From: Methanomassiliicoccaceae archaeon
Lineage (GTDB): Archaea > Thermoplasmatota > Thermoplasmata > Methanomassiliicoccales > Methanomassiliicoccaceae
Direction: 5' to 3'
DNA length: 64,000 nucleotides
NCBI GenBank assembly: GCA_963728405.1
Contig: CAVSJV010000002.1
Span: forward strand, 224,001-288,000
In this document: piece after piece, positions 3,106 to 34,793 of the stretch
Layout of the letters: each line of letters begins with the position of its first letter
How positions within the stretch are numbered: position 1 is the first letter of the stretch
Notes under the pieces: generated by a model
The model's database searches: none
What the model saw: the letters and a program-made list of their open reading frames with translations, nothing else
Told to the model about the DNA's origin: nothing
Made by a program: the position numbers and the translations under genes

Positions 3106-3528
3106 ATGTCCCCCCTTCCCGATGAGATGCTGGCCCTGAAGAAATTCCATGGTCACCTGGGACCATATGCCGTCCTTGGATATCGGATGGGCCTGATGGC
3201 CCGTCGGCGCTTTCCCGAGAGGATATATGCCATCGTCCACAGCGGAACCAAGCGGCCGCTTTCTTGTCTGGCCGACGGCGTCCAAATGGCCTCCTGTTGC
3301 ACCCTTGGCAAGAACAATATCACGGTGTTGGAGAATGGGGAGGCTAGAGTGGAGTTCTCGGACGGCCGATCTCATTTGGAGGTCTCCGCTCTTCCCGAGG
3401 TCCGGGTCGAGGTGGATGGGAGATGTACCCATGCCAACGAGGAGGAGATGGCCCTGCGCCTCTATCATGCCAGTGAGGACGAGCTCTTCACCATCATAGA
3501 AGGGCGGTCAGTCCCGTTCGGCAAATGA
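3106..3528 (+). CDS. FmdE-family (formylmethanofuran dehydrogenase subunit E-like) protein
   Basis: FHGHLGPYAVLGYRMG and CLADGVQ...CTLGK motifs. Confidence 0.85.
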   Translation: MSPLPDEMLALKKFHGHLGPYAVLGYRMGLMARRRFPERIYAIVHSGTKRPLSCLADGVQMASCCTLGKNNITVLENGEARVEFSDGRSHLEVSALPEVRVEVDGRCTHANEEEMALRLYHASEDELFTIIEGRSVPFGK

Positions 3529-7008: not shown

Positions 7009-7564
7009 GGTCGGGCACCACCCGGTAGGCGGTCTTGTTGACCAGTTCATCGGCCTGATCTAGGAGGGTTCGGGCATGGTCCAAGTTAGAGCGTAATGCC
7101 CGTACGCATTGCTCGCACGCTCGCCCATGGCTTCCCAGGGGGCTGGGACGGTCGGTGGCGAGCTCGGATGACGCCAGGGGCAGCGCCTCAATGACCCTGC
7201 TGACCGTCGAACGGAGGTTGGATGGGCAGGCGTCGCAGTCGTCGAAGAGTTGTTCGAAGCTCAGCCCGTTGCAGAAACGGATGACCTCGGTCAACCGCTC
7301 CATCACCATTGCGCACTCTCGATCGTAGACGATCTCCCAGTCCCTTGACAGCATGATCTCTCGGACCCCCGACGGGTCCGATGCCATCAGCCGCAGAACC
7401 CCCTTCAGGCAGGTCTGGTCGGCCAGGTCAGGGGTGTTCCGACAGTCCCGGCAATCCACAGTAAGCATACCTCGGTTCTTACGTCCGGCGCAGGCCAACC
7501 TCCCTGGAGCGTTCTTTTCTGCCCTTGCGTCTCTTCCTATGGTCCTGAAAAGGGTGATTCTCAT
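6998..7564 (-). CDS. Cys-rich protein upstream of the secretion ATPase
   Basis: CRDC, CDAC and CEQC motifs; overlaps the ATPase start in operon fashion. Confidence 0.7.
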   Translation of the reverse strand: MRITLFRTIGRDARAEKNAPGRLACAGRKNRGMLTVDCRDCRNTPDLADQTCLKGVLRLMASDPSGVREIMLSRDWEIVYDRECAMVMERLTEVIRFCNGLSFEQLFDDCDACPSNLRSTVSRVIEALPLASSELATDRPSPLGSHGRACEQCVRALRSNLDHARTLLDQADELVNKTAYRVVPDHEH

Positions 7565-10962: not shown

Positions 10963-12195
10963 TTAGGCCCCGAACTTCTCCGAGCGATCCGCTTTGTCGA
11001 CCAGGATAGGCAGCAGGTCCTTGCCTCTGATCCTTCCAATGGCTCCGAGACCGCAGGAAACCTCATCGTAGGACCTGGTTCCGTCCTTGATAGTACTTTC
11101 CGAGCAGATGCATAACGGGACAGGGTCACCGGAATGGTCCATCCTCTCCACCGGGGTGCAGTGATCGGCGGCGAAGGCTACTACACTGCCCTCCGGCAGC
11201 CCCTCCCGCAACACTTTGGCCATGCCATCTAGGCGTTCGATGACCTCTATCTTCTTCTGAGGGTCGCCGTCATGCGAGGCGATGTCCGAGGCTTTGATGT
11301 TCATCAGGACGAAGTCCCTCCGCTCCAGCTCCCTCAGGGCAGTATGGGCCTTCGACACCATGTCGGTGTCCATGCCTCCTGTGGCTCCCGGCACATCAAC
11401 TATTTCCAGCCCGCACACTCGGCAGATGCCCTTGATGAGCGAAACGCCGGCCACGCACGAGGCGGACATGCCATAGCGCTTCTCGAAAGGTTCGATGCTG
11501 GGGAAAAGACCCGCCCCCCGCGGCAACAGAATGTTTGCCGGTAGCTTTCCCTCGTTCTTCCTGCGTACGTTGACCGGATGAGGGTTCAGGATCTCATACG
11601 ACCGCTTGACGAACGCGTTCACCACTTCGGCCGTCTTTTTGGCCTGGGGCACCATAGCTTCTGACATGTGCACCCGGGCGGCTTCGTGAGGGTCAGCATC
11701 GGTCACATGGGGGTCCAATCCCTCGCCCCGCAGCAGAAGGACAGCCCGGTGCTCGGTAGCGTCCCTGACGATGGCTTCGATACCATTTATCTCCAGGCCG
11801 TCCAGCGCCTTGACCAGCTCGCCGGTGTCTGGCTCCTTGATGCGTCCGGCACGGCGGTCCAGGACGGCCATCTTGTCATCCACGGTGGCGAAGTTGCAAC
11901 GGAATGCGATGTCCCCGCTCCGACCTACCAGCCCGACTCCGGCAGCCTCGAAGGGGCCCCTTCCGGTGTAGACGGAATAGGGATCATATCCCAATAGGGC
12001 CAAATGAGACGTGTCGGACCCCGGTCGGATCCCCGGTCCGATAACGTCCATGCTACCGGTCGATCCGTTCTGGGCGAACCAGTCCAGGTTGGGCTTCTTG
12101 GCCACTTGTAGGGGGGTCCTATATCCAAGCTGCTTGACCGCACGGTCGCCCAGACCATCCATGATAACGATCAGGATCTTCTTGCCGGAATCCAT
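10963..12195 (-). CDS. apgM: 2,3-bisphosphoglycerate-independent phosphoglycerate mutase
   Basis: DGLGD, PGSDTSHL, GRGPFEAAG, DIASHDG, ADHCTP, HSGDPVP. Confidence 0.96.
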   Translation of the reverse strand: MDSGKKILIVIMDGLGDRAVKQLGYRTPLQVAKKPNLDWFAQNGSTGSMDVIGPGIRPGSDTSHLALLGYDPYSVYTGRGPFEAAGVGLVGRSGDIAFRCNFATVDDKMAVLDRRAGRIKEPDTGELVKALDGLEINGIEAIVRDATEHRAVLLLRGEGLDPHVTDADPHEAARVHMSEAMVPQAKKTAEVVNAFVKRSYEILNPHPVNVRRKNEGKLPANILLPRGAGLFPSIEPFEKRYGMSASCVAGVSLIKGICRVCGLEIVDVPGATGGMDTDMVSKAHTALRELERRDFVLMNIKASDIASHDGDPQKKIEVIERLDGMAKVLREGLPEGSVVAFAADHCTPVERMDHSGDPVPLCICSESTIKDGTRSYDEVSCGLGAIGRIRGKDLLPILVDKADRSEKFGA

Positions 12196-12251: not shown

Positions 12252-12629
12252 TTAGGCCATTGACCGGGACCAGACACCCTCGGGAAGGGAATCATAGAGC
12301 CCCAGCTCGATGTTCACTTCTTCCTGTTTCGGCGCAGCATACTTCACAATGCGGTCGGTGTTCAAGGCCCAGTAGAATACCCGCCAGGTCCTTCCAGAGG
12401 GCAAAATGGCCTCTTCCCAATGGGTTGACAATATCTGCACATCCTGGAGGAAGTAGAACATCCTACGATCATCCTGGTCCAAAGCATTGTCAATTATCTC
12501 GTTCTCAAAACCGAAATAGTTCAGCACACGGAATGAGATGTCAGCAGCGACATCTTCAGTTACCTCCAACTTGTGCTTGATCGCGCGGTCTAATATCTCG
12601 TAAGTAATAATCGGTCTAATACGGCTCAT
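12252..12629 (-). CDS. DUF6015-like winged-helix protein (paralogue 1)
   Basis: FG..E.IDN.L..DDR.MFY.L...WRVFYW; clear similarity to 55705..56100. Confidence 0.7.
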   Translation of the reverse strand: MSRIRPIITYEILDRAIKHKLEVTEDVAADISFRVLNYFGFENEIIDNALDQDDRRMFYFLQDVQILSTHWEEAILPSGRTWRVFYWALNTDRIVKYAAPKQEEVNIELGLYDSLPEGVWSRSMA

Positions 12630-12748
12630 CTATGTTCCCGATTAATATCTGTTTGCACTACTATATGAAGATAGGTATGTGACCCTTCCGAAAGCGCGTC
12701 CTATCTCCGTATCTGGCCAGGCGGCGGAAGGGTGTCGAAGGTAAGTTC

Positions 12749-13802
12749 TCAGATGACGATGTTCCCGTCCTTCAAGATCTGTTTCTCGTCAACCCAGATG
12801 GAAGGATTCTTTACCAGGCAATCCTGATGGATGAGGGCTGGGCCGTCGTTATCATAGTTGAACCCGATGGCAAAATGGCAGGTCTTTCCTACTTTCTCAT
12901 CCTCCAGCATATTGTTGACCATCTTGGCCTTATAGTTAAGGCCGATCCCGAGCTCTCCAATATTGCGAGCGTTGCGCTCCTCATCCTTTAAACCGTTGTC
13001 CCTAGCTCTCTTTTCGCCGCTCTTGATCACGTTCAACAAAGCATCGGCATCAGGGCTGTCAGTGATATCGGAGATGTAGCCGTCCTTGAACTTCACATGG
13101 ACCGGTTCGCGGGGCTGGACGCAGCTGGGAATGAGGTCCAGAGTGCCGTCGTAGACTATGGTTCCCTTGGTCGAGCCGACCACCGGGGAGATATATACCT
13201 CGCCGCAGGGCACATTCCCGCCGGTCCCAGGAGCGCGGAAATCGCCATCATCGGAATGGGCCCGCCGCCCTTCGATGGAAATGGTAACATCAGTACCAGC
13301 CGGGGCGGTGACCCGTACCTCTTTTCCGACGTCAAGGATACTCTTCAGTTTGGCAGCATTGGCCCTCATCTCGGCATAGTCGATAACCACGCAGCGCTCG
13401 AAAGTATCCCTTGTAAGCGACGGTGACCAGAACGATCGCAGCTTCCTTTCCCCCATCAGATAATACTGGATATGATCGTATTTCTTTCCATCATGACCAA
13501 TATAGCCGTTCTTCTGTCCGAATGGGTCCTTGCCGGTCTTGTAGAAAGGAACGGAGATGAAGATGTCAGGGTTCTCTCGGATGGCCGCTAGAACGGTGTG
13601 CTCGGCGAACTGGAGGATGGTCTTCGGTTCCTGGATGAGCATCACCGGTTTACCGCCCAGGGCTTTGGTCTGATCGAAAAGTGCCTTGGAGATATCGAAG
13701 GCATCGCCCTCGAAATTGGTCGCTATCACCACTTCCTCGCCGGGCCTTAACCCCAGCACGCTCCCTCATGGCCACCAAGGCCGCCTCTTCAAGCTTGGAC
13801 AT
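12749..13802 (-). CDS. Aminopeptidase, M29 family (frameshift near 13761)
   Basis: GNVPCGEV, IGELGIG, EDEK, HFAIG, HQD. Removing one base extends the N-terminus to MSKLEEAALVAMRDVLGL. Confidence 0.9.
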
Positions 13803-13962
13803 GATAAGCCCCTAAAACCTATGGTCTGGCACCGGCATAAGGCTATAATAGGCTTGCGTAAAAATCGTAAGTGAGATGCCTAGAACAACGATGTGATTCT
13901 AATGGGGCGTATATGATCACGAAGTGAAAAAGAGGGAAGTAGTTTAGAGATAGAAGTTCTGC

Positions 13963-14139
13963 TTAGAACCTTCTCTCGCTGCGTGCCGGCTTGTGCTTCT
14001 GGTAGCATTCCCTGCAGTAGACCGGCCTTCCCTCAGTCGGCTTGAATGGTACCTGGGTCTCGGCTCCACAGTCGGAGCACTTGGCATTATGCATCTCACG
14101 GGGCTCATCGCGTCTATATCCGCCTCTTCTGTCATTCAT
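13963..14139 (-). CDS. CxxC-x17-CxxC small zinc-finger protein (58 aa)
   Basis: Manual translation MNDRRGGYRRDEPREMHNAKCSDCGAETQVPFKPTEGRPVYCRECYQKHKPARSERRF; too short for the ORF track. Confidence 0.92.
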   Translation of the reverse strand: MNDRRGGYRRDEPREMHNAKCSDCGAETQVPFKPTEGRPVYCRECYQKHKPARSERRF

Positions 14140-14514
14140 ACAGATTACCTATTCTATGTTCCACAAACCTTACGGCTTGTGTATGCCACTCCAATTCATT
14201 TTCGGGTATAAAATATCACCTATCGGACCAATAATAAATGGAAATTATCGTACAATTAAAGGCCGTTCCTGTCGTTTTCAAACCTATATGTGACCACATC
14301 CTTTGTCAGGATATTTGCGTATAATTGCTCACGATCTTCGCCAGAGAGAAAAGATACAGAGTCATTGGAATGGACCTCTCCACCCGTGCACCCTTGTGTC
14401 TCACCACGGTGCGCTCGGCACGTCAAAAAATGAGGATTGAACTTAACATTCTGTCGGGTAAGCAGATGGCATATGGCCAAGGTTTATATGCCATTTTAAG
14501 CATCCATCCTCCCC

Positions 14515-14754
14515 ATGAACAAGAACGTCCTGACCGTCATCGTTGTCATACTTACACCCATCATTATCCTCGGGATCCTGGCAGTGGCCGGGGCTGAGAA
14601 CTTCGAGAAGGCCAAGGAAGCCGCCGGGGACGAGCACAGTGGGGAGAACACAACCGAGACCGCAGCTATGCTAGTCCCAATTCAGACCATCAAGCTCATC
14701 AACGCTCAGACCAATGACCTGTTTGGCTCCATTTGGATGCGGGCCCTGGTCTGA
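14515..14754 (+). CDS. Small membrane-anchored hypothetical protein
   Basis: N-terminal hydrophobic helix, TTTTAA upstream, T-rich tract downstream. Confidence 0.55.
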   Translation: MNKNVLTVIVVILTPIIILGILAVAGAENFEKAKEAAGDEHSGENTTETAAMLVPIQTIKLINAQTNDLFGSIWMRALV

Positions 14755-14846
14755 AACTCTTTATCATTTTCATTCATCTTTATAAGGAAAGGTCGGAGGA
14801 CTGTCGATCACGACGCCAACAATATTGGAAAAAAGTTTGGTCGTGA

Positions 14847-15083
14847 TCAGGCTTTAGGCCGCGAGGCTTTGGGCTCGCTGGTCATGACAATTCTGACCCT
14901 CTTGCCCGGCGGCACATCGATGACGACCTCCTCCTTCATGCTCCGATCTGATACTTCTTTCTCCTTTCGGACGTTCTTGTTCATCTTGAGCATCTTCTCG
15001 CTCGGCTCGTCGAGTAGGACAATGTTAAGCCTTCTCGCCTCTTCCGATGCCGCCAATATTAGTTCTCCCAAGTTAATCACCAA
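14847..15083 (-). CDS. Small hypothetical protein
   Basis: Protein-like composition (EEVVIDVPPGKRVRIVM); T-tract downstream on the - strand. Start uncertain. Confidence 0.5.
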   Translation of the reverse strand: MVINLGELILAASEEARRLNIVLLDEPSEKMLKMNKNVRKEKEVSDRSMKEEVVIDVPPGKRVRIVMTSEPKASRPKA

Positions 15084-15669
15084 CTAGATCTACGGACAGG
15101 ACGCCTGACAATTCTATGTCGGCTTTTCCTAGATCGAACTTGTCCCCCGCCGCCGTAGGTTCGGAGGTACTATCGCAATGCACCCTAACGCGCTCCTAAC
15201 CAAATTGTTTTCTATGCTCCGCTCGATTCCGGGTTGCTTCGTTTTTCGGTTACAGACCTCTAGTTTTGGCCCATTTCATTGTGCATAAGATGGGGTATCG
15301 AAGAATATGTCCGCTTCTGAAATATATTTAACTTTTTGCGAATGGACGATCCATTCGATAGTGAGATTAGTGTTCAAGGGCGCGTTTGCGGCCTAAAAGA
15401 GGCTCATCTTGGCTTCGGAACATCCGATGATACTGTCGACATATCGAGACCGCTCATCTAACGGCCAATAAGACAGCACCAATGCAGCGACGGGTTGTAC
15501 AATTTACAAAGGCCACGGAGCCTTAGTATCCAGTTGTCGGTATCATCGAGACCAACATTGCCAGGAAAACTGCGTCCTCGAGCCCTTCCTGAAGAGATGA
15601 AATCAGAGACAGATATATCGGCAGTAGAAATCTCAAATAATTTAACAGAGTTCAGAGTTATGTGCCCAC

Positions 15670-16407
15670 ATGGCCATGGGACAGGTGGGCAGCTGGGAGG
15701 GTCTGAGATCGAGAGTGCAAGCTCCCTGCCCAGGTTGCCCCAGGAACTCGTCTAAGGTGCCTTTGATTTTCAGCCGTCGAGGTCCATCGACCCTAGTAGA
15801 TTTCATCGTGGTCTCTCAAGAACCTGGATATTGGCTTAGGGACCTGACCACCAGCGATGCCGCCGAGCAAAAACTGCAGAAGTTATGCACGGAGCAGAAA
15901 CCGATCGATGATCTGAAGAAGGCTAACCCCCTAACGAAGGTGGTCCAGATATTCGGCAGTTTCGATCCCACGGGAAGCAGAACATACTGGACGCACGCCC
16001 TGAAATGTATTCCGGAAAAGAGCGATCGTGACATCAACAAGGAATGGAGGAAGGCGGCCACTCGGTGCGAGGAACACTTCCTGGACGAGTTGAGATCTTT
16101 GGGTAAGGGGGAACTGAATGTCTTAGCTTTCGGCAAGTTTCCCCTCGAGATGTGTCTTCACATCTTTGAAGGCCAGGACATTGACCAGGACCTCAGTATA
16201 AGTGAGTTCATGCAATCCTCAAAATTACCGATCACCTACAAGTACAAGTTTAGGGACGGGACGACCAAATTTGTAAATCTCTTCGTGTTCACCAATCCGT
16301 CCAGTGAGGTGGTGAAGATCATGAAGAGCGGGGGGAAGTTAACGGTAGAAGAGATCCAAGAGCTGGAGATCAAACGCATTAAGGAGATCTTCGATAAGCG
16401 AAAGTGA
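15670..16407 (+). CDS. Uracil-DNA glycosylase superfamily protein (divergent)
   Basis: CPGC, VVSQEPG (motif A-like), YWTHALKC, downstream Cys, LAFGK, NPS at the motif B position. Confidence 0.65.
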   Translation: MAMGQVGSWEGLRSRVQAPCPGCPRNSSKVPLIFSRRGPSTLVDFIVVSQEPGYWLRDLTTSDAAEQKLQKLCTEQKPIDDLKKANPLTKVVQIFGSFDPTGSRTYWTHALKCIPEKSDRDINKEWRKAATRCEEHFLDELRSLGKGELNVLAFGKFPLEMCLHIFEGQDIDQDLSISEFMQSSKLPITYKYKFRDGTTKFVNLFVFTNPSSEVVKIMKSGGKLTVEEIQELEIKRIKEIFDKRK

Positions 16408-16523
16408 GGTCGGTATGCAGCCGTTGCGAAACAGGGTGGTTTGCGGCTCCGAGGTTCTGATCCAGAAAGAACTGATCGGATTTCCCCGAGAGGTCCTACC
16501 GACGACCATTAGCGGTATGGGGG

Positions 16524-16997
16524 ATATCTGATGTTACCACCACAAGATATGGCATCAATATCAAATTCACATCAGGTGATGACGCAATGAACTGCACGGC
16601 CCACTGCAATCATGCCTCTACGTTGGGCATGAGCGGCATGGGTACAGATTTTGACAAAGGTGTCAGGATTGGGATGAAAACGATGTCGACACCCTATGGT
16701 ATCAAGCAGGTTGAGCATTGACGGGTCACTAATGCCATAGGTGGCATCACCACAGTAATAGGTCCCTACATCGGGGCGAAGAGCCCGGCGTTGTACAAGA
16801 TGGTCACGACTACGGCCGGTGTGGTGGATCTAATCTGCGCTGGCATCTCGACCATGGTTCTGAGTGATACGAACTCGCTGATGCAAAAACGGCAATACCT
16901 GAGCTCCAAAACTCTATTGTCCCTTTCCTACCGAATAGTGATACCATTATGCAGTATAGGGCTGAATAAGGGCCGAATCCGTAGCAGGGATCGATAG
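16524..16997 (+). pseudogene. Decayed gene, probably for a secreted beta-rich protein
   Basis: Protein-like reading (..GMKTMSTPYGIKQVEH*RVT..YIGAKSPALYKM..TMVLSDTN) interrupted by TGA at 16719; no clean start. Confidence 0.35.
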
Positions 16998-17147
16998 TTC
17001 AAGCAATGGGATCGGGCCGCAACGGCATCAATGAATGTGATTCGGCCTGGTCATCTCTGTCCGAATTACTTTCTGCTCTCCTTTCGGCCGTCAACAATTG
17101 TCCATTGTTGTGATATTTTATTAATGAGCCGATGCAACAATATTGAT

Positions 17148-18176
17148 ATGACCTCCAAAGGGCGGTTCCTAGCGGCACTGGAACTTGAGATGCCTGATAG
17201 AGTTCCGACCATGCACATCCAGTTGGGTGGGGCCAATCATCTCCAGGACAGCACCGGAATGGCGATCCGCGAGGCATATTACGACGCAAATAAATTCGCT
17301 CGTTTATGTTTAGCGTCAATGGAATTTGGTTTTGACAATGTCATGGTCGCCTGGGGGGACCTCCTCAACGAAGCGCAGGCCTTCGGGGTCGAGCTCACTT
17401 TTCCTAACGAGAAGGATTATCCGCGGGGGACGCCGATCTCCCCCGACAAGATCGAGGGGCTCGAGGTCATCGACCCTATGGGCGATGACGTATGGGCCAC
17501 ATCATTGAGAGCAGCTAAGATCGTCAATGATAAGGTGGGGAACGAAATGGCGGTGATCGGGCAGGTCAGCGACCCCTTTACCTTGGCCGCCGCGATCCGA
17601 GGGTTCGATGGCCTGCTTATGGACGAGATCATGGAACCTGACCGTACTCATCATCTACTCAGCGTGGTCACCGATTCACTGAAAGAATACGGTAGGCTGC
17701 TCAAGGAATATGCTGGGGTTGAGATCATCTTCATAGAAGATGGAAGCGCCGACGCAGAGCAGAACATGTTCGACCTGGCCAAGGCGTTCGACATTGATTA
17801 TACCAAGCAAATGGCTGAGCTCTATCATCCCATGGGGCTGCGCTCGATCCTGAGCAATTGTGCCAAAGAGCCCTATCTGGATGCTCAGTTTGAAGCTGTC
17901 AAGCCAACCGCGGTCCACACATCGGTCGAATGGAGCGGATATGGTGATGAATTAAGTAAGCTGAGGGGCCGAGCATGCATTGCAGCTGGCCTATTGCCTC
18001 ATTTCATAGCTCGTTCCGATCCCGGAATGATACGCCAAAAAGTAAGCGAGGTGGTCCGTTCGTCGGGAGATGGCAGCGGGCTCATCATCACATCGGCTGG
18101 GGAAATACCCTTCGACGCTCCCCTCAGCAACATCAAGGCGTTGAGCGGTTCAACCGCACTGATCACGCTCCCCTGA
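17148..18176 (+). CDS. Uroporphyrinogen decarboxylase / MtaA-CmuA superfamily protein
   Basis: MTSKGRFLAAL..PDRVP, EAQAFG, DPFTLAAAIRG, EIPFDAPLSNIKAL. Confidence 0.85.
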   Translation: MTSKGRFLAALELEMPDRVPTMHIQLGGANHLQDSTGMAIREAYYDANKFARLCLASMEFGFDNVMVAWGDLLNEAQAFGVELTFPNEKDYPRGTPISPDKIEGLEVIDPMGDDVWATSLRAAKIVNDKVGNEMAVIGQVSDPFTLAAAIRGFDGLLMDEIMEPDRTHHLLSVVTDSLKEYGRLLKEYAGVEIIFIEDGSADAEQNMFDLAKAFDIDYTKQMAELYHPMGLRSILSNCAKEPYLDAQFEAVKPTAVHTSVEWSGYGDELSKLRGRACIAAGLLPHFIARSDPGMIRQKVSEVVRSSGDGSGLIITSAGEIPFDAPLSNIKALSGSTALITLP

Positions 18177-18347
18177 TGGAAATGTAGTAAGTGGGAAATA
18201 TTGAACGCAGAGGCCGGGAGAGACCAGACCTTGGCAGTCCGGTTCTAAGATATTTGGGCGTGGCCTAATATATTCTTCCTGCGACGCGCTCTGTACGATA
18301 CTAGTGAAGTTGGAGTGCATCGGACCAATGGTCCCTGGGCCGATGGC

Positions 18348-18791
18348 TCACATCAGGCCTAGCTGTCTCATCATTCCCACAAGGTCATAGAACAGTTTCT
18401 CCTCCGTGATTTCTCCGTTCCTCCAGTGGGCCACGGTACAGAATTCAATTTTGAACTTCTTGTTCGTTGGTGGGATCATTTTCCGTCAGACCCCTTCAGC
18501 GACCCCTTCATGGTACCAGTGAACTCGGCAACGGAACAAGTGTGGTCGCCCTGGGCGAAAAATATCTTGTAGGGGGTCGTTCACGATGCGATTGTCCGGA
18601 AAGGTGTGGAAAAATTCTTTCGCCCCAGCCTCATGATTCTGGCGCATCCGGGTCGGCTCCGATTGTCCCGGCCACTATGCGGAGACATCATTAGCATGGC
18701 GTTCGTTGAAAGTTGGTCAGTCCTGAGCGTTCTAAGCATCGTCCAGCGTCTTCATCAGTCGCATGTTCTCCTCCACGTTTACCTGCGTCAT
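18348..18791 (-). pseudogene. SnoaL-like ester cyclase pseudogene
   Basis: Reconstructed MTQVNVEENMRLMKTLDDA*NAQD*PTFNERHA..*WPGQ..FPDN..FTGTMKG..IPPTNKKF..EFCTVAHW..EEKLFYDLVGMMRQLGLM; three in-frame stops and two frameshifts. Confidence 0.85.
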
Positions 18792-19031
18792 AATGGAAAA
18801 AGTGAAACGCGTAGTATTTAGCCTATACACGAAAACCTGGCGGCACTCGCCTCCAGTCACACCATGTGGAAAATGCAAGGTGCATGGCGCGGTCGGAACG
18901 CACGGACCACCAACGGGGGAGGGCTCAGTGAGCTATCATATCGGGATCGAGGACTCGTTGGAGCATAATTAGCACTGATCTTGAATGAAATAAAAAAATA
19001 AGAGCGATCTCATCAATCAATGATGCCGGAG

Positions 19032-19370
19032 CTAACGCATTCCTCCTCTTTCAGGTGAGGTGATCTGCTCTATATTCTTCTGTCGAGAATCAGTGTCGGC
19101 GGGGGTTTTATGAAGCGCCCTGTCGCGGTGTTCAAGAGCTTCAAGATCAATGTTTCCCCCGCTGGGAGGTTCGATTCGGACACTTTCCTCGTCCACGGTG
19201 CTTATCATGCCCCCCTGTCGAGGTGCCTTCACAGGATCAAAGCTTTTGCGTGCCTCATCGACATCCGGTGCGGTGCGGCTGAGTGTTTTGTCCCTGAGTC
19301 GTAGCTCTTCATCAGCAAACTTGTTGACATTTGCCGTTTTCTTTTGTCCCTCGTCCATCTTTGTTTTCAC
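19032..19370 (-). CDS. Hydrophilic hypothetical protein
   Basis: 112-aa charged ORF; TTTATAA upstream and T-tract downstream on the - strand. Confidence 0.55.
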   Translation of the reverse strand: MKTKMDEGQKKTANVNKFADEELRLRDKTLSRTAPDVDEARKSFDPVKAPRQGGMISTVDEESVRIEPPSGGNIDLEALEHRDRALHKTPADTDSRQKNIEQITSPERGGMR

Positions 19371-19544
19371 CCCTGTTACCTAATATTGACGTCAGAGTTC
19401 CATATACTTATAAACGTGTGTAAGAAAAACAATGCTGGGCATAGTCTATTACACGTTCCAAAAATGGAGCCATGTCTCCGTTGTAACATCCAAACTTCTG
19501 AAAAAGACAGCGCTAGGGCCCGAAAGATTTGCCAAAGCCTGATA

Positions 19545-19627
19545 TGGCACAGGGGGAGGATCTTGAACCTAGGACCACTAAAGGTGGGATCCCCATGTCC
19601 TCGAAAGAGGAAATGGCCACCCATCGT
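19545..19627 (-). repeat. Degenerate tRNA-Leu 3' half plus hairpin arm (att-like site, copy 2)
   Basis: tggcacagggggaggatcttgaacctaggaccactaaaggtgggatcc aligns to tRNA 22047-22095, then ccatgtcctcgaaagagga..tggcc..ccatc, shared with the copy at 20690. Confidence 0.75.
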
Positions 19628-19767
19628 ACTCCTCTCCGGAGCCTTACGGCGGTCATCTCAAGTATTTGACGGACTCTCGGGCGGTGGTCCCCCCCTCGCT
19701 TGAGAGAGCATGGCCAGGAGAAACATGCTCCTTTACCTGCACCTTGCTTACTTCAATGCTCAGGGGG

Positions 19768-19941
19768 TCATTTGCTCGAGCGACGATTCTCTGCGGCCAA
19801 GCTGAGGGCCAACACTATCCCGATGAAGATCAAGAGAAGATAGATGGGCGAATCATAAAGATAGAACAAGAACCCGCCGACTATCATTACTACTGAAAGA
19901 ATGGTCAGACTAATCGTCCTGACCACGGAGGGATTCACCAC
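19768..19941 (-). CDS. Small two-TM membrane protein (57 aa)
   Basis: Manual translation VVNPSVVRTISLTILSVVMIVGGFLFYLYDSPIYLLLIFIGIVLALSLAAENRRSSK. Confidence 0.55.
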   Translation of the reverse strand: MVNPSVVRTISLTILSVVMIVGGFLFYLYDSPIYLLLIFIGIVLALSLAAENRRSSK

Positions 19942-20189
19942 GGTCTTAAAAATTGAGCTATTGGAGTATATTTCATTCGCTCACCTTTATGTATACCAAA
20001 ACACGAATTTGTCTCTCAAAGTAGTGATTGCCCTATGGGTGAGGGACTGCGAAAATACGCTCACACAAGACTTAGGTCGAAAAATAATACTAAATGTTTA
20101 TGGGGTCGATCTGAGCAGGTGGATCGGTAAATCACTCGGAGGCTCAGTTTCCAGGTGGTTCTTCGATCATCTGTCGCAGTGTCATCATC

Positions 20190-20507
20190 TCAAGCGAAGA
20201 TCACTGCCATTACTGGACCATGGACTTCCTGGTTCATCAGTTGAGGCGGTTCGGTCGCAATGGACTGAAGCTTCTTGGAGACCTTCTGATAGATACCTTT
20301 CTGAGAAGCATTCATTGTATTTTCCGAGTCCCACAAGGCAATGAATGTCGCAGTGTTCGGGTCGTCCATGGACTGGAGAGTGAGCATTCCTCTGAAGCCC
20401 TCCGTCTTCCTAATCTCTTCCATGAAGCCCTCTACGGTCTCAACCGCTTCTGCTCTTTTCCCGGGCTTGAACTTCCATATGGTCATCCTTGCGTGTACCA
20501 TGGCCAT
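20190..20507 (-). CDS. Antibiotic biosynthesis monooxygenase (ABM) / dimeric alpha-beta barrel protein
   Basis: FKPGKRAEA..TEGFRG..DPN...IALWDS pattern. Confidence 0.8.
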   Translation of the reverse strand: MAMVHARMTIWKFKPGKRAEAVETVEGFMEEIRKTEGFRGMLTLQSMDDPNTATFIALWDSENTMNASQKGIYQKVSKKLQSIATEPPQLMNQEVHGPVMAVIFA

Positions 20508-20689
20508 CTCCAGTTGAAAAGATGTAGAATCGATGGATTAAATATCTTTCCTGATGTGACGGCGCCATCGATCCATCGCCTTAATGGCAAACCGGAGAAG
20601 GAAGCGCATCAAAGATAAGAATGATCGATGAGCATCCTCGAATGGAAGTGTCCAGAAAGCTCTGCGGTGTACTAATTTAAAGAACTAGT

Positions 20690-20763
20690 TGGCGCAGGGG
20701 AAGGGATTTGGACCACCAAGAATGGGATCCCATATTCTCAAAAGAGATATCTGGCCCCATCAT
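20690..20763 (-). repeat. Degenerate tRNA-Leu 3' half plus hairpin arm (att-like site, copy 1)
   Basis: tggcgcaggggaagggattt[8-nt deletion]ggaccaccaagaatgggatcc matches tRNA 22047-22095 with 4 substitutions, then catattctcaaaagagatatctggccccatc. Confidence 0.85.
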
Positions 20764-20851
20764 CTGTCTCTTCCGCCGCTCTTTCGCTGAGCTCAATCGT
20801 TTAACGCCGTTCTTGGTCCGGTGAACGCTCCATCCCCTGCCTGCTTCTAAC

Positions 20852-21919
20852 CTACTTGTACCGCAGTATGCCTCCCACCTTAATCGTCGACACGAACATC
20901 CCCCCCAGTTCACTCTCGTCGTTGACGACCAAGACCTCGGTGCGGTAGCTCTCGGCCGTCTCCGAGATTTCCTCGATGTCCTTCAGCTCTAGTGCGTCGC
21001 TGACGATAACCACGTCTACCTGACCCCGTCTCAACAGTTCCGCAGTCTTTTCGAGACCCCATACTGCCAGGCCGTCCCTTCCTAGCTCGGCCCAGAACCG
21101 GTCCAGCACCTCTTTCTCGTGGTGGTACTCACAATTCGCCAGCAAGCCTTTTGCCGCATTCATTGCCTCTCGAAGTCCGTTCTCATCGGTATAACCGACG
21201 TCGACAACCCCGATCACCTTTTTGCGTAGCTCGTGATGAAGGTAATTACCAGCCATGAAGTCATCCTTGGTCATGGCCGGGCCGCCGACGATGATACCCC
21301 TCAGACCCTGATCCAGAAAGGCCTCGGTGCACCGGTCCGATATTCTCTTGAAATACGCGTTAATGGCGTCGTCCCTTAGCCGCTCGAACCTTAGGCTAGA
21401 CATGCCTCCGTGGTGGTGCTTGTTGGGAACCCGCGACTCGATTTGGGTATACGCCTTGATGACGGTTCCGGTGACGTAACCGAGGGTGGCCTCGGCCAGG
21501 TCTAGGACCAGGATGCCGTAAGTATCACGGGTTTCGGTCATCAGATAGAGTGGATCGAGGAAAAACTCGCTGTCGCACCTGTAGACGAAATCGGAGAGCG
21601 GCATAGGCGGCTCTATCACCTGGCGGTGGAGGCGGTCATCGACCTCGCCGAACAGTAGCACTAGGCCGTTGCCCGGAGCGATCTTACCCAGGCTAGTCAA
21701 CTGGGATAGGAGCGATGAGATAGCTGTCTGAATGTTCTTGCCAAGGAGCTGGGACTCGCTCCCCTTGGCCTCCGAGTAGTGGTCCTGGAGATAGACACGG
21801 ACATCGCTGATGGGCTTGCCGGGCGGGATGTACAACGAGATCAGTTGGGCTCTGTCCGCCTTGATGCTCCGGGCATGGTCCAATCGCTTCTTGAACAAGG
21901 GTGCGTTCATCCAATACAC
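20852..21919 (-). CDS. Peptide chain release factor aRF1/eRF1 paralogue (GGM, no NIKS)
   Basis: LISLYIPP, YRCDSEF, SRVPNKHHHGGMSSLRFERLR, GGPAMTK, VGYTDENGLRE, GGILRY. Confidence 0.92.
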   Translation of the reverse strand: MYWMNAPLFKKRLDHARSIKADRAQLISLYIPPGKPISDVRVYLQDHYSEAKGSESQLLGKNIQTAISSLLSQLTSLGKIAPGNGLVLLFGEVDDRLHRQVIEPPMPLSDFVYRCDSEFFLDPLYLMTETRDTYGILVLDLAEATLGYVTGTVIKAYTQIESRVPNKHHHGGMSSLRFERLRDDAINAYFKRISDRCTEAFLDQGLRGIIVGGPAMTKDDFMAGNYLHHELRKKVIGVVDVGYTDENGLREAMNAAKGLLANCEYHHEKEVLDRFWAELGRDGLAVWGLEKTAELLRRGQVDVVIVSDALELKDIEEISETAESYRTEVLVVNDESELGGMFVSTIKVGGILRYK

Positions 21920-22046
21920 CTACAATCGATCAATGGGCATTGAATATGAAACAGTTAACAATATACTCAAGCGTTATTGTTATGCCCCCTAAGCTGGCAA
22001 TACGCCTCTGATAAAGAAATAATCCGTAACGAATGGATACGCATGA

Positions 22047-22133
22047 TGGTGCAGGGGAAGGGATTTGAACCCTTGGACCACTAAGGATAGGATCCTAAGT
22101 CCTACGCCGTTGGCCAAGCTTGGCTACCCCTGC
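22047..22133 (-). tRNA. tRNA-Leu(TAG), CCA encoded
   Basis: GCAGGGGTAGCCAAGCTTGGCCAACGGCGTAGGACTTAGGATCCTATCCTTAGTGGTCCAAGGGTTCAAATCCCTTCCCCTGCACCA: 7-bp acceptor stem, TAGGA/TCCTA anticodon stem, long variable arm, TTCAAAT loop. Confidence 0.97.
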
Positions 22134-22160
22134 TTCTGGCCACCTAACGACTAATTATTC

Positions 22161-22614
22161 TTAATTCTTTTCCTCGATCCGGACGGCCCGTTCCAGCTCC
22201 GACTGCAGATATTTCCTCATCACTTCCATGGCGTTCTCCCTGGACTGGGGATAGGATTTCACCTTGCCGCGTATGGCGATGACGTCCTCACCGTCGGCCA
22301 TCTTGAACTGCCGGAGGAATGCTTCCTGCTTGCCCAACCTTAGGAAGAAGAACGATTCTTCGTCCAACCTACGGTCCAGGGAGTCCAGCAGCTGCGAAAG
22401 GTCCTCCCTGCTCAACGAACGGAACAATGCCTTGATACTCTTGGCATCGGTGACCTTCACCTCCATAACAATGATGGGGTTGCCATGGTAGCCGGTGCTG
22501 CTGCTCTGCTTTATCTCCTCGGCCCCAGAAACGAACTTCAGAGCCTGCTCGACCCGGTTGGGGTCCTCGGTGGCGTGAGCGAACTGTCCGGAAGGCCAGA
22601 TTGGCGATGTCCAT
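22161..22614 (-). CDS. Archaeal RNA-binding protein (DUF54/PF01877-like; frameshift at 22585)
   Basis: Repaired reading FRTFAHATED..GYHGNPI..FFLRLGKQEAF. Confidence 0.85.
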
Positions 22615-30245: not shown

Positions 30246-30629
30246 CTAATCTGGTAACACCTGCACCGTGGTCTTGATAGCCTCAAGTTTTGCCCGCTTG
30301 ATTGTATCAAGAGTTTCCTCAGTATGGATGTACCTCTTCCTTATGCACTCCACCACCGCGTCCTCGGGGGAATTATACATCCCTGCCCGAACCGAGTCCA
30401 TAATGGTCTCATGCGCCAGCCGGGGGATCTCTACCGTTATCATGTTCTTCTTGACCGGATGCTTCGTGGTCCCGGTCGTGCGATCCCCTTCCAGCTGTTC
30501 GATGAACGTTCGAATGGCCACCCTAGCAAAATTGGAACGGTTTGAGTATTCCGGATGCTTTTCGATAAAAGCATCGAGGAGCTCGAGGTCCTCAGGTTCC
30601 AACCGTAGTGATATCCTTTCTCCGTCCAT
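30246..30629 (-). CDS. Tandem ribbon-helix-helix regulator (CdrS-like by context)
   Basis: ERISLRL..YSNRSNFARVAIR and ITVEIP..GMYNSPEDAV; directly upstream of ftsZ. Confidence 0.8.
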   Translation of the reverse strand: MDGERISLRLEPEDLELLDAFIEKHPEYSNRSNFARVAIRTFIEQLEGDRTTGTTKHPVKKNMITVEIPRLAHETIMDSVRAGMYNSPEDAVVECIRKRYIHTEETLDTIKRAKLEAIKTTVQVLPD

Positions 30630-30666
30630 TCTCAGCTCTCCTGCGATTTCAGGACATATTTAGGAA

Positions 30667-30821
30667 TGTCATACAAAGTATATAAAAATATGTCATCTGT
30701 CATATATTGTCATATCTATTTTGATACTATGGAAAGGCGACTGGCCAGATATAACATTCTAAACTAATAATTGTTGGTCAGATATGGTCCATTTAATTTC
30801 ACTCGACGCGGGGTGTCATAC
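30667..30821 (-). promoter_or_regulatory. RHH-ftsZ promoter with clustered TGTCAT(A) repeats around the TATA box
   Basis: TGTCAT at 30667, 30691, 30698, 30708 and 30814; TTTATATA on the - strand within 30678-30688. Confidence 0.65.
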
Positions 30822-31251
30822 CCGTGCGACGGGGGTGGGACGCCGTGGGCACGGGGTCAGGGATGCAGGATATTGAAGTTAAGGGGGCCTCATGTGGAGC
30901 AAGCGGCCAATCTTTTACCAAATCCCTTATACTCTTCATCAATCAACCAACAAAATCGTAAACCTATTCCTATCCATTTTTATCATTCACTTCGGGACGC
31001 TCAACCGAGGCCGCTCGAATATGACCTTCTGGCCGCAGCTCTCACACTTATTATCGATCTGTATCAGGTCCCGATCGAACCTAACCTTTTGTAGAAGATT
31101 GCAGGATGGGAAAGGAACGGTCTTGCGAACGGATCGGCCGTAATATTCCATGGATCATGGAAGCCTCCCTAGAACATAAGCGGCTGACGGGGAGAGGTGG
31201 CCGGATACCGATATTCAGAGTTAATGAAATGAAAAAAGGAAAAGTATTGGG

Positions 31252-32740
31252 TTAAGGAGTTTGCCGCATCACGGCTTCCTCGTCCTCAGGGCGACCAGCA
31301 GGACGGCCACGATGGCGGAGATCAAAGCGATCGCGCATTCCAGGACGGTGCCATTCATCCTTCACTATGACTGACAGCACCACGGCCAATATTGCAAAAG
31401 CCATACCTAACAGCATAACGCCATTATAGCCTTTCAAGAACACATAGGGATCCAAATCTGCAAAGGGCGTGTTACCAGAACCACTGAAAATCGTGAAGAA
31501 CGCTGCATAGGAGGCCGCGCCTACGGATGCTCCTAGATATGTCGCAACAGCGATGAGCGCGGCTCCGGTCCCTTTCTCCTTATCATCTATCTTCTCCACT
31601 ATGCGACTCGCAGCTGAACCGCAGGAGCCCCAGAGGACTCCCATTAGGACCAGGGCGATTATCAGAGGGATAGCTCCCATCGTCGGATCGATAAGGAACA
31701 GGATGCCACTGGAGATCGTCATTGCCATGCAGGAGATGGTACTGAACAATCTTCGCCCGGAGCGGTCGGACCATCTGCCGATCGGCACACTGATGATCAG
31801 GGTCATGACCGGCGGTATCAACATGTATATCCCGCTTGTGGCAGGATCGAACCCCATGGCCAGAGAAAGATAGAATGGTGTCAGATACCATATTCCTGTC
31901 CCCACAAGGTTGATGATCAGGTACACTAGGAACACCGAATCGAATATCCAAGAGCGAAATACTCTCAGGTTCAGGATGGGATCCTTGCATCTTTTCTCCC
32001 ATAATATGAACAGGATGGTTGAGAGAACGCAGATGAAGATCGCGGCAAAGATCTGAACGCTCTCCAACCCCAGGTGGGAGGAACGTTGTATAGCGAACAC
32101 GCCCGTGATGATGGCTATCATCGACAATGCGGGATCCCGGCATGTCGAAATATGCTCGGATATATCCCTCATCCTTGGGTATGGTTCGAGTCAAGAACAG
32201 AATGCCAGCTATCCCTATTGGTATGTTGATGATGAATATCCAGTGCCAGGAGAGATATTGAGTTAAGATGCCACCGAGGGTGGGTCCCGAAGCATATCCA
32301 ATGGAGGCCCCCACGGCAATTACGCTCATGCCGAGCCCGAGCCTATTTTTAGGAAGGAATCTAACGCACAAGAGGGGAGCGCAGGCGCCCATGACGGCCG
32401 CGCCTATGCCCTGGAAAATCCGGCCGACGATCAGCATCTCGAATGTGGTCGCCAGACCGCAAACCAGGGAGAAGAGAGTAAAGATGGCCAAGCCGACTAT
32501 GAGGAACCTCTTGATAATGCCGCGGTCTGCCAGTCGGCCGAACACCAGGAGCAGGCCTGCCATCATCATGAAATAGGTCAAAGATACCCATGCGGCAGTG
32601 CCGGTATCGATAAAGAACGAGGACGCGATACTAGGCAACGCGATGTTCACTATCGAGGCGTCCATCCCATCCATGGTTGTTAGGAAGATAATAGCGATCA
32701 GCAGGAGCGCCCGTCCTCTGCCATCCATAATGGTCGCCAT
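31252..32740 (-). CDS. MFS transporter, DHA2-like (frameshift near 32132)
   Basis: MDASIVNIALP, GRLADR, GRIFQG, GPTLGG, WHWIFIINIPIG; second half in a shifted frame. Confidence 0.9.
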
Positions 32741-32837
32741 CTTTTCAGGAACACGAGTACGCTATGAAAAAGCCTTGGTTTCTCTTATGTTTTCAATGTC
32801 CCATCTGAAGGCTAGGCCATGGTGCCGGAGCAAACAC

Positions 32838-32912
32838 ACGCTCGACCGCTTGGCCTTGGCCGGCGCCACGGTCTACCGCACCGACCTTGACGGGGCGATG
32901 ATCATCACGCCC
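32838..32912 (+). pseudogene. C-terminal fragment of a ComEC/Rec2-type MBL-fold gene
   Basis: TLDRLALAGATVYRTDLDGAMIIT resembles the YRTD..G.I C-terminal motif; no upstream body. Confidence 0.55.
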
Positions 32913-32943
32913 AAGAAAGTAGGATCCTTAATCATCTCTTTTC

Positions 32944-33348
32944 TTACCCTGCTGGGTCGTCGAGATCTACCCTCCGCAAATGCATTATCATTTTGACTGG
33001 ACCCATTCTCATCATTTCAGTAACAGTCTTACCAAGGAGTATTGCAGCATCCTCCCAATTCTTCTTCTTGCCGAGCCATCGGTTATAGCCAGCAGCAAAT
33101 ATGATTAGAAAGCCTACAATCACCAATGAACCCTGAAGGTACATTTCGAGTTTCCAACGATATTCATCACTCGTTATTGGCGAAGAATTATAGCCACTAT
33201 GGCTGTCATAAATAGCAAACGCCATTAAAATTATAATAAAGATGAAAGCCGAATATCTTTGGGCGAGAGCTGTCACTCTGGCTTTAAATATATAATGCCA
33301 ACTTATTATGTTAATATTCTTAAATCCGGCCTTAATATCTGTTCCCAA
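32944..33348 (-). CDS. AT-rich hypothetical membrane protein
   Basis: Two hydrophobic helices; start uncertain. Confidence 0.45.
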   Translation of the reverse strand: MGTDIKAGFKNINIISWHYIFKARVTALAQRYSAFIFIIILMAFAIYDSHSGYNSSPITSDEYRWKLEMYLQGSLVIVGFLIIFAAGYNRWLGKKKNWEDAAILLGKTVTEMMRMGPVKMIMHLRRVDLDDPAG

Positions 33349-33382
33349 TATAGCAACAAAGGCAATGTACGAGGGTCTCTAG

Positions 33383-34270
33383 ATGGATCAGGACGCTTTG
33401 GAAAACATAATGAAAGCTGGAGCCGTGACGCGGGAGGCTCGTCAGCTTGGGGCAAGCATGATCGCCGAAGGTGTAAGCCTGCACAGCGTGGCCGAGGAGA
33501 CAGAGGCCTACATCCGTAAGAAGGGGGCGAAGCCTGCATTCCCGGTCAACATTGGTATCAACCAGATCGCTGCTCACTTTACTCCAGCCTCGAATGACCC
33601 ATCGACCTTCCATCGAGGAGACTTGGTGAAACTGGATGTGGGGGCGCATGTGAACGGCTACATGGGCGACACTGCGGTAACCGTCGAGGTGGGCACGAGG
33701 AACTGGGCCAGCTTGATCGATGCGCCGACCAAAGCACTCATGATGGCGATCGAGATGATCAGCGAGAGGGTTCCCGTCAGCGCCATCGGGAGCACGATCG
33801 AGAGAGGCATAAGGAGCAACGGTTTCGTGCCGATTCGCAACCTTGCTGGCCATGAGATAAAACAGAATGATCTGCATTCAGGCCTGTCAATCTCAAATTA
33901 CGACGATGGCAACGATACAAAGGTTACAAAGTGTATGCTCCTGGCCATCGAACCATTCGCCACAAATGGTGCAGGAGAGGTCGACAATGCCAAACCAGGT
34001 AACATCTACATACTCCAAAGGGATCGCGAGATCAGGGATGCTGGAGCAAACCGCCTCTTCGGCATGATCAAAGAGGAATTCGGGAGCCTAGCCTTCTGCG
34101 AGAGGTGGTGCACGGCCCTCGATCCCAAAGCTCCTGTTCACCTGAGGACCCTAGTAAGATATGGGGCGCTATATTCATATCCAATCCTAACGGAAGTGAG
34201 GGGCGGGATGGTCTCCCAGACAGAACACACTTTACTCATAAACGGATCCAAGGCACAGGTGACGACTTAG
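33383..34270 (+). CDS. map: Methionine aminopeptidase type II
   Basis: AFPVNI..AAHFT, KLDVGAHVNGYMGDTA, NLAGH, AIEPFAT, QTEHT. Confidence 0.96.
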   Translation: MDQDALENIMKAGAVTREARQLGASMIAEGVSLHSVAEETEAYIRKKGAKPAFPVNIGINQIAAHFTPASNDPSTFHRGDLVKLDVGAHVNGYMGDTAVTVEVGTRNWASLIDAPTKALMMAIEMISERVPVSAIGSTIERGIRSNGFVPIRNLAGHEIKQNDLHSGLSISNYDDGNDTKVTKCMLLAIEPFATNGAGEVDNAKPGNIYILQRDREIRDAGANRLFGMIKEEFGSLAFCERWCTALDPKAPVHLRTLVRYGALYSYPILTEVRGGMVSQTEHTLLINGSKAQVTT

Positions 34271-34361
34271 AGTGCGAGCATCTGTCCCTGTCTGATGCAA
34301 GGATGGCTCAATTGTCACAAATCTGCATCCTTGAATAATTGCTTCCCATTCCACTGCCCTC

Positions 34362-34676
34362 CTGCGGTGGCATACTAAGCTGACGCAGTTAGGCGAGAGC
34401 GGGATCAATCCCTTTAGCTGACAGAAGTTCGCCGGACATAGCAACATCCAGACCACAATGGGCTATATCCATGCGTCCGAGTCGGTCATGGCGGCGGAGG
34501 TCCTCGCCAAGCCAATGTTAGTGATTGAGGGTGTGCCAAAGAAAACGGCAGCTCTTGACGTGGACTCCATGCGGGTCGGTCTAACCATGCGCTTAGCCAA
34601 GGGCGAGATAAGCGAAGCGACGTTCAACCGAGCCATGACAATGTTCGAGCCAAACCCTCTAGAAAGGTTGCGATGA
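34362..34676 (+). pseudogene. Tyrosine recombinase/integrase C-terminal remnant
   Basis: LRWHTKLTQLGESGINPFS*QKFAGHSNIQTTMGYIH (box II GH..TT..Y) with TGA at 34419; SHOCT-like tail RLAKGEISE. Confidence 0.8.
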
Positions 34677-34793
34677 CCAACGTGCCAAAATCTTTTAACC
34701 TCGGAACACTGGCTAAAGCTATCCGAATAAAGACGGGTATAAAACATCATATTTATACCCTTAGAGTATTTCCTGGCCAGGAAAGGTTTAACG

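Follow-up and report, generated by a model that had tools for sequence, protein, structure and literature searches.

Transfer RNA (tRNA) genes are common integration targets, and partial tRNA copies beside them have been recognised as attR attachment sites (PMC9897764). Among archaeal examples, elements with tyrosine recombinases were reported to re-use one site and to form arrays in Thaumarchaeota (PMC6563490), and elements of Thermococcaceae to leave partial tRNA genes as attR (PMC9897764). Both traits recur at the locus analysed here, which lies in a window of 64,000 nucleotides (C2:224001-288000; the window is the whole stretch of DNA analysed, and positions without a contig label refer to it) from the 2.73-Mb metagenome-assembled genome (MAG) of a Methanomassiliicoccaceae archaeon (18 contigs; guanine-cytosine (GC) content ~0.58; completeness 93.75%). 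In the following, G000 is this genome, G002-G023 are relatives from the family, and L numbers denote fetched loci or contigs. Downstream of the tRNA-Leu(TAG) gene of the window, small gene units are bounded by decayed copies of the tRNA 3' half, and the array consists of attR-type scars that serial insertion at this tRNA has stacked up. However, archaeal elements have been described with sizes of 2.6-98 kb and a median of 17 kb (PMC6563490) or of ~9-23 kb (PMC9897764), and with an integrase, whereas the units of the window measure 0.6-2.3 kb and have none. Serial integration at tRNA genes as such is well known, the usual units being elements of many kb with their own integrase; new in the present case are the grain of a single gene, the lack of any recombinase trace, and the whole-unit gains and varied orders among sister genomes.

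Among bacterial systems, the tycheposon islands of Prochlorococcus, as portrayed by Hackl et al. (10.1101/2020.12.28.424599), are likewise adjacent to tRNA genes, with newcomers that push older elements inward, partial tRNAs in between and scattered remnants. Tycheposons are, however, reported to possess their own tyrosine recombinase and mobility genes and to leave fragmented integrases among the remnants (10.1101/2020.12.28.424599), whereas 12 of the 13 units considered here are without integrase or relic, most are ~1 kb in size, their host is archaeal and its relatives have integrases of a Xer-like kind. Profile searches of the window units revealed no recombinase and no replication gene of the sort expected in a tycheposon. 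The cis-mobilizable elements (CIMEs) of streptococci, in the description of PMC5704250, resemble the units here in being att-flanked, free of integration genes and lined up one behind another at a target gene's 3' end; the integrase of a neighbouring element can move them via the outer att sites (PMC5704250). They differ as bacterial decay products of integrative and conjugative or integrative and mobilizable elements (ICEs and IMEs; PMC5704250), whereas the present units are far smaller and stand in no conjugation context, and no relics were found in them. Taken by its parts, namely attL/attR flanks and the lack of integration or transfer genes, the definition of a CIME nonetheless describes them.

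Integrons consist of the integrase IntI, the site attI and cassettes with attC sites. The likeness to them lies in small, mostly one-gene units stacked at a fixed site with the newest nearest to it, in a recombinase related to Xer, in cassettes without a recombinase and in signs of re-ordering. The differences are that G000 has no intI beside the array, that no conserved attC-like hairpin exists, that gene orientation is mixed in relatives, and that what recurs as a site is the copied 3' half of the target tRNA, an attR-type duplication. The array is not an integron, since no attC-like hairpin rule was found. Gene capture by partitioned integrases of the Sulfolobus spindle-shaped virus (SSV) type was reportedly described for Crenarchaeota by She et al. 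in 2001. There as here, foreign genes are fixed by tRNA genes, with tRNA-derived repeats and no working integrase, but SSV-type capture leaves int(N)/int(C) fragments at the borders, whereas the integrases of the relatives studied here are intact in the integrated state. No account of such arrays was found in the literature on Methanomassiliicoccales, as judged mainly from titles, and the main text of a comparative genomic study of the order (PMC4153887) mentions genomic islands once and contains neither 'release factor', 'termination factor' nor 'integrase'.

The intact tRNA-Leu(TAG), the attL-like target, occupies 22047-22133 on the minus strand (ARAGORN; Rfam tRNA 54.4 bits), encodes CCA, is the sole tRNA of the window according to ARAGORN and the single match of an Rfam scan of 18500-22300. 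With an nhmmer profile built from Leu-tRNA 3' halves, two displaced copies of its 3' half were recovered downstream as direct repeats on the same strand, the attR-like c1 at 20690-20738 (E 2.7e-10) and c2 at 19545-19598 (E 6.4e-12). An earlier reading of this DNA, henceforth the original prediction, had placed two degenerate 3'-half copies at these sites, had both stop matching the tRNA in the anticodon loop and had the farther one more substituted, and it was correct on all three counts. The likeness breaks off after GGATCC, within the anticodon loop, which is a canonical crossover sublocation, and over 49 tRNA positions c1 differs from the tRNA by 4 mismatches and one 8-nt T-arm deletion, c2 by 7 mismatches and 3 gap columns. 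A third decayed copy, c3 (18878-18929, minus strand), bears the ancestral T-arm signature GAACGCACGGACCAC and differs by 15 mismatches and 6 gap columns, so that decay grows with distance from c1 over c2 to c3. The local alignment score of c3 is 125 against an ancestral-type half, a value reached by 4 of 20000 random genome windows, and 89 against the present tRNA; by nhmmer alone it is weak (E 0.35-0.57). It is probably the original chromosomal 3' half. A probable fourth relic, c4 (16573-16623, minus strand), lies ~165 nt past the stop of a 245-aa gene and scores 94 against a random mean of 54.5 (standard deviation 10.2); its geometry is like that of relics in G016 (score 121) and G017 (score 80), and like that in G020, where the 245-aa gene abuts the tRNA itself.

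Archaea have split and intron-bearing tRNAs. The copies might hence be read as functional pieces, either 3' halves of split tRNAs or a family of intron-bearing tRNA pseudogenes, and in both of them the adjoining arm does pair with the former anticodon-stem strand (TGGG...CCCA) around an insert of ~30 nt. However, 8 nt are missing from the T arm of c1, and c2 has a mismatched T stem that no longer pairs, so that neither is a working tRNA half; apart from the real tRNA, neither Rfam nor ARAGORN makes a call, and a 5' half partner was not seen. The T-arm damage and the lack of an Rfam tRNA at the copies rule out the split-tRNA or intron reading, chance similarity is excluded by profile E-values of 1e-10 to 1e-12, and explanations of either sort are, in our estimate, scarcely credible.

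A second line of evidence for serial insertion comes from the tRNA itself. The orthologous tRNA-Leu(TAG) genes have a common 5' half and two compensated T-arm types, the ancestral 'GTGCG...CGCAC' and the 'GAAGGG...CCCTT' type of the G000 tRNA, and in G017 (L018) the tRNA is of the new type while the displaced copy is of the ancestral one. Two T-arm types on one 5' half, together with ancestral-type displaced copies in G017 and in c3, indicate that the 3' half of the tRNA was replaced. Tyrosine integrases classically cross over at the tRNA anticodon stem-loop and thereby replace the tRNA 3' half; judged from these sequences, the replacement is just the outcome that an integration event crossing over close to the anticodon loop would have. 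As a separate observation, one relative (L150; G002:C24) possesses two full-length tRNA-Leu(TAG) genes at 2097-2183 and 11308-11394, inverted and 9 kb apart.

The layering of the surrounding DNA is of the same kind. Flank genes point to Methanomassiliicoccaceae, and the nearest loci belong to 'uncultured Methanomassiliicoccaceae' and Methanomassiliicoccus MAGs. Beyond the tRNA the chromosome continues with a gene for a PF01877 RNA-binding protein (22161-22466, minus strand), followed by POR genes, as seen with Pfam and by locus comparison; on the far side, comparison with relatives identified a conserved flank gene of 125 aa (12252-12629, minus strand). In the outgroup L024, the most distant relative, this gene lies ~120 bp from the tRNA, whereas 9.4 kb separate the two in the window, and this island (12630-22046) has a GC content of 0.51 against 0.57-0.59 in either flank. 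Its deeper and older layers (12630-15669), with an M29-peptidase-like gene at 12749-13759 and small open reading frames (ORFs), are low in GC and common to more distant relatives, the M29-like layer being found in G019, G020 and L021. The 245-aa gene (F1; 15670-16407, plus strand) is an old resident, which 7 genus genomes have at this locus in differing positions. Unit 4 follows with a URO-D/MtaA-like methyltransferase homologue (17031-18176, plus strand; PF01208, with TIGR01463 below cut-off), which is 78% identical to that of L016, and unit 3 with an ORF of 112 aa (19032-19370, minus strand) that has no family match and only weak relatives within the family. Sharing narrows toward the tRNA: the 245-aa gene is genus-wide, the URO-D-like gene occurs in the closest relative only, and units 1 to 3, the closest to the tRNA, occur in G000 alone. 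When unit DNA was compared with 24 family genomes, part of the aRF1-paralogue gene of unit 1 in G002 (71%) and two weak matches were all that was recovered. The c1/c2 array is, on our reading, the most recent part of this 9.4-kb island, which would have grown by repeated site-specific insertion into the tRNA-Leu(TAG) 3' half.

Whole units behave as blocks when relatives are compared. Half copies, counted at E<=0.5, were present at six of 12 loci with orthologous tRNA-Leu(TAG) (G000, G023, G017, G020, G021 and G016) and were not detected at this threshold in G015, G019, G022 (with 2.6 kb of sequence only), L021, L022 and L024. The six loci comprise 13 half-bounded units with a spacing of 0.67-3.3 kb (median 1.15 kb); the single one that is not devoid of an integrase or relic is an integrase unit in G021. 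The G020 locus equals the arrangement of G015 (F14-F25-tRNA) plus a 0.93-kb one-gene unit (F1) between the duplicated 3' half and the tRNA. In G017, G020 and G021, one and the same F10-half junction leads into three different units, and unit 2 of G023, with 979 bp between its halves, corresponds to a 937-bp homology block elsewhere in G016 whose ends fall 6 and 38 nt from the halves. The original prediction had proposed an alignment across relatives, and this alignment reveals whole att-to-att units gained exactly at the tRNA, which favours cassettes mobilised in trans. The orders of F1, F10 and F14 conflict, F10 and F14 being reversed in G017 versus G015 and G020, and F1 being outermost in most genomes and tRNA-adjacent in G020; island module proteins share identities of 67-88%, as is typical of orthologues in the genus. 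F14 (390 aa, 82-88% identity between genomes) is itself a recurring module of tRNA-Leu(TAG) islands in three genus genomes (L017 7418-8590, L018 4302-5474, L147 609-1781).

Such permutation might arise with no dedicated recombinase, as the tRNA and half repeats of ~50 nt offer homology for general recombination, and unequal exchange after DNA transfer between relatives would add, remove or reorder units. This fits the varying module order between congeners, the coincidence of unit borders with halves, and the fact that G000, G017 and G016 carry arrays and no close homologue of the Leu-type integrases introduced below. General recombination cannot, however, make a first half copy or supply the tRNA with a new 3' half whose T arm is of another type; the breaks fall in or next to the anticodon stem-loop, the classic crossover site of tyrosine integrases, and the older halves are too decayed for efficient recombination. 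We therefore hold it to be improbable as a full account.

The unit nearest the tRNA adds evidence from outside the Leu locus. Units 1 and 2 measure 1357 and 1145 bp, close to the ~1.36 and ~1.15 kb of the original prediction. Unit 1 carries an aRF1 paralogue of 355 aa (20852-21919, minus strand; TIGR03676 326.8 bits, profile positions 5-315 of 403), which in alignment has GGM for the catalytic GGQ, has lost NIKS and is devoid of the zinc-ribbon insert, traits kept in all four assessable paralogues (three further sequences, incomplete from ORF extraction, stand outside this count). Paralogues from other Methanomassiliicoccales are 52-62% identical to it; the canonical aRF1 of G000 is encoded elsewhere (C7:90777-91895). 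The paralogue is found in two of 24 family genomes, G000 and G002 (62% identity), and in metagenome contigs at a best identity of 57%, so that a donor lineage was not found among the latter. On one of these contigs (L179, at 1170-2645) a paralogue of 57% identity begins 133 nt past tRNA-Ser(GCT), compared with 127 nt past tRNA-Leu in the window. Directly past the tRNA 3' end, ~48 nt (21999-22046, minus strand) make up the proximal (B) arm of unit 1; they are homologous to the corresponding ~48 nt of L179 (2 of 500 shuffles), and seven other B arms are dissimilar. In L179 a candidate tRNA-Ser half follows ~145 nt past the paralogue (6 of 500 shuffles). The same B arm and aRF1 paralogue stand after a decayed tRNA-Ser 3' end at ~2480-3703 of L178, and the B arm is absent from aRF1-paralogue loci without a tRNA. 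A degenerate B-arm motif gave 0 matches in a genome contig collection and 0 in a viral contig collection.

Unit 2 encodes an ABM-domain protein of 105 aa (20190-20507, minus strand; PF03992 E 7.1e-9) and, from the ORF list, a small hydrophobic ORF of 57 aa (19768-19941, minus strand), a putative transmembrane gene with weak family matches only. The original prediction had all cargo oriented like the tRNA; this holds for the aRF1 paralogue, the ABM gene, the transmembrane gene and the 112-aa ORF, thus for four of four small-unit genes in G000, and fails for the next large gene (17031-18176), which lies on the opposite strand, as do unit genes in G017, G020 and G016.

The window units contain no PF00589 match and no recombinase or replication gene in profile searches, and tblastn with five Leu-type integrases of relatives against 18.8-22.1 kb of the window found nothing at E<4, in line with the integrase-free array of the original prediction. 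The same five queries against the 12 loci gave nothing at E<0.05 beyond the integrase of the G021 unit, the lone marginal match (E 0.054) falling inside the URO-D-like ORF. Two further candidates were discarded: ORFs 20677-20913 and 19376-19624, which run across c1 and c2 and were considered as SSV-type int(N)/int(C) fragments, have no Pfam match and no integrase similarity in searches that did not specifically include an SSV-type profile, and F14 (390 aa) and F1 (245 aa) have no Pfam, NCBIfam or PHROG support as hidden recombinases. Relatives, by comparison, do possess Xer-like integrases near tRNA-Leu genes (G019, G020, G021 and G023; PF00589 E 1e-26 to 1e-41; NF040815 140-183 bits, under the cut-off of 220). 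These lie directly downstream of and co-directional with tRNA-Leu(CAG) in G019 and G023 and tRNA-Leu(GAG) in G020, and in G021 a 1.07-kb unit between tRNA-Leu(TAG) and the first half has as its sole content a Xer-like tyrosine integrase of 304 aa (L142 2461-3375). L145 (G023:C3) is also worth recording: at 2133-7368 it shows four Leu-half-like copies, an intact integrase (6304-7215) and no intact tRNA, and its innermost half copy, with the integrase beside it, runs on into a decayed full-length tRNA-like sequence.

From these data a course of events may be proposed. An incoming circle would carry, between arms of its own, a mimic of the tRNA 3' half; through recombination at or close to the anticodon loop the tRNA would gain a new 3' half, and the old one (c1, c2, c3 and probably c4) would be shifted outward together with all earlier inserts. 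On arrival the inserts would hold one to few genes in 0.6-2.3 kb and no integrase of their own. The recombinase would most likely be a Xer-like tyrosine integrase encoded outside the unit, given that such integrases stand directly downstream of tRNA-Leu in sister species and once form the sole content at this very tRNA. Plausibly, a cargo unit would be excised together with an adjacent integrase-only unit via the outer att sites, the integrase unit being lost later. That the units were small and integrase-less when they arrived, and were inserted by a tyrosine integrase encoded outside them, we would put at about half likely. The array of G000 is probably static now.

Several points weigh against this. 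No cognate integrase was found in the G000 MAG at its completeness of 93.75%, but distant or fragmentary ones only, and for this reason action in trans is something we infer, as we do the circular intermediate and the identity of the acting enzyme. The tRNA junction points vary among units (GGATCC; ...CCTAAGT; ...CTAAGGA), which suggests several element types. The matches of c3, c4 and the L179 half are weak, and most genomes compared are MAGs and mutually related, so that the counts given above do not represent independent events. Integrase-bearing units of 13.6 kb (G019), 6.2 kb (G023:C21) and 3.4 kb (G023:C3) exist at Leu-type sites, and in the 3.4-kb one lies an ABM gene that shares 38-40% identity with its unit 2 counterpart; unit 2 is ~55% non-coding, a share that could be debris. 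The original prediction regarded large integrase-bearing elements at the site in relatives, with deletions ending at random points, as speaking against it, and this came true in part with the three units just named.

The last points lead to a different history, in which integrase-bearing elements of several kb inserted in series at the tRNA and deletions left attL/attR and one or two cargo genes, in the manner of CIMEs; as a variant, the integrase might have removed its own side of the element as a smaller circle via a secondary site. In the three large units the integrase indeed lies at the tRNA side, the ABM relationship and the non-coding part of unit 2 fit decay, and the arms that c1 and c2 have in common are as expected for two elements of one family. 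A route by which elements decay until att sites flank an integrase-less remainder, and then accrete, is, moreover, documented for streptococcal CIMEs (PMC5704250), and degenerate elements with scattered partial tRNAs are described from tycheposon islands (10.1101/2020.12.28.424599). On the other hand, the 12 units without a relic include young ones with halves ~90% or more identical to the tRNA, namely unit 1 of G023 (0.70 kb), of G020 (0.98 kb) and of G017 (1.31 kb). The ABM gene aside, there is no coding similarity between window 16408-22046 and nine Leu-tRNA loci of relatives, five of them with an integrase gene, and independent erosion would not be expected to produce twice a one-gene aRF1-paralogue unit with a homologous B arm, at another tRNA and in another lineage. 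Erosion is thus a real possibility, although we would sooner doubt it than accept it.

The non-tRNA arms beyond the halves bear on both histories. The distal (A) arm of unit 1 (20739-20851) is homologous to the A arm of unit 2 (19599-19710), as seen by divergence-tolerant alignment and blastn, the latter with 64% identity over ~160 nt between the c1 and c2 regions, which takes in the half and ~105 nt of non-tRNA arm. Under strict scoring (+2/-3) the likeness is not significant, 206 of 2000 shuffles reaching the score, whereas under scoring fit for ~65% identity it was attained by 0-5 of 1000 dinucleotide shuffles and 0-3 of 1500 genome windows (z ~6). The arm match of ~35 nt in the original prediction is therefore real, and longer, when divergence is tolerated, and loses significance under strict scoring. 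The inverted repeats were rightly placed (TCTC-AAAA-GAGA at 20736-20747, TCCTC-GAAA-GAGGA at 19598-19611), a stable hairpin being formed only at c2 (z -3.5, 0 of 200 shuffles; c1 z -0.7). A general attC-like hairpin beside the halves is ruled out, the fold of 24 such arms having a mean z of -0.42 against -0.37 in controls, and with the mixed cargo orientation in relatives this removes the integron-like structure that had been proposed. A profile of the c1/c2 arms, whose underlying global mafft alignment was poor (46% identity), yielded self matches only in the fetched loci and the own genome, and the exact 31-nt c1 junction had 0 matches in a metagenome contig collection. Beyond c1 and c2, A arms are common in neither sequence nor fold, and so a single recombinase that reads a common arm is unsupported, which counts against insertion from outside as well. 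Of the minimal cassettes mobilised in trans which the original prediction envisaged, what stands are the whole-unit gains, the 12 integrase-less units, the permuted modules and the recurrence at tRNA-Ser; what does not are the integron analogy and an integrase in G000 to act on them.

Tentatively, and as a proposal we consider somewhat unlikely as it stands, Methanomassiliicoccaceae might have a tRNA-anchored counterpart of the integron, in which a Xer-like integrase unit of ~1 kb, with class II tRNAs (Leu, Ser) as a fixed dock, inserts, excises and reorders one-gene units whose sole signal is the tRNA 3'-half mimic plus short arms. If so, the GGQ-less aRF1 paralogue and similar genes would pass between lineages as single-gene cassettes; if units truly move without an enzyme of their own, the genus would have a cassette-style site of gene collection on a tRNA gene, with consequences for the way in which archaea with small genomes gain accessory genes. 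A concrete pair of enzyme and substrate can be offered, the Xer-like integrase of the G021 type and a site made up of a half and its arm. An aRF1 paralogue, conserved and devoid of the catalytic GGQ, is the newest cargo; found in a pyrrolysine-using order, it is of functional interest in its own right, and an inactive second aRF1 is known from pyrrolysine-using Methanosarcina.

Some minor observations concern related genes and sites. At five places an ABM gene related to the one in unit 2 has a tRNA-Leu gene or Leu-half copy no more than ~5 kb away: C2:155711-156007 in the own genome, G023:C41:9057-9341, G023:C3:72571-72840, G020:C1:482807-483082 and G022:C7:96611-96871, and unit 1 of the closest relative at tRNA-Leu(TAG) is an ABM gene too, but a different one. 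A second low-GC stretch of the window (30400-35000; GC 0.45-0.54) has no tRNA nearby; in it, at 34371-34508 (plus strand), a C-terminal tyrosine integrase fragment of ~46 aa with one in-frame TGA is 39-40% identical to the Leu-type integrases of relatives. Elsewhere in the own genome, at C17:154437-155371, tRNA-Leu(CAG) is followed 0.85 kb downstream by a 42-nt 3'-half copy, the two enclosing a single gene on the opposite strand, and tRNA-Leu(CAG) of G017 has a similar unit of 0.75 kb. Other partial 3' copies in the own genome were seen for tRNA-Ser(GCT) on C7 at 11.5 kb, tRNA-Ile on C13 at 5.7 kb, tRNA-Ala(GGC) on C7 at 9.3 kb (here an integrase fragment is present too), and tRNA-Ala(CGC) on C13 at 3.3 and 15.7 kb.

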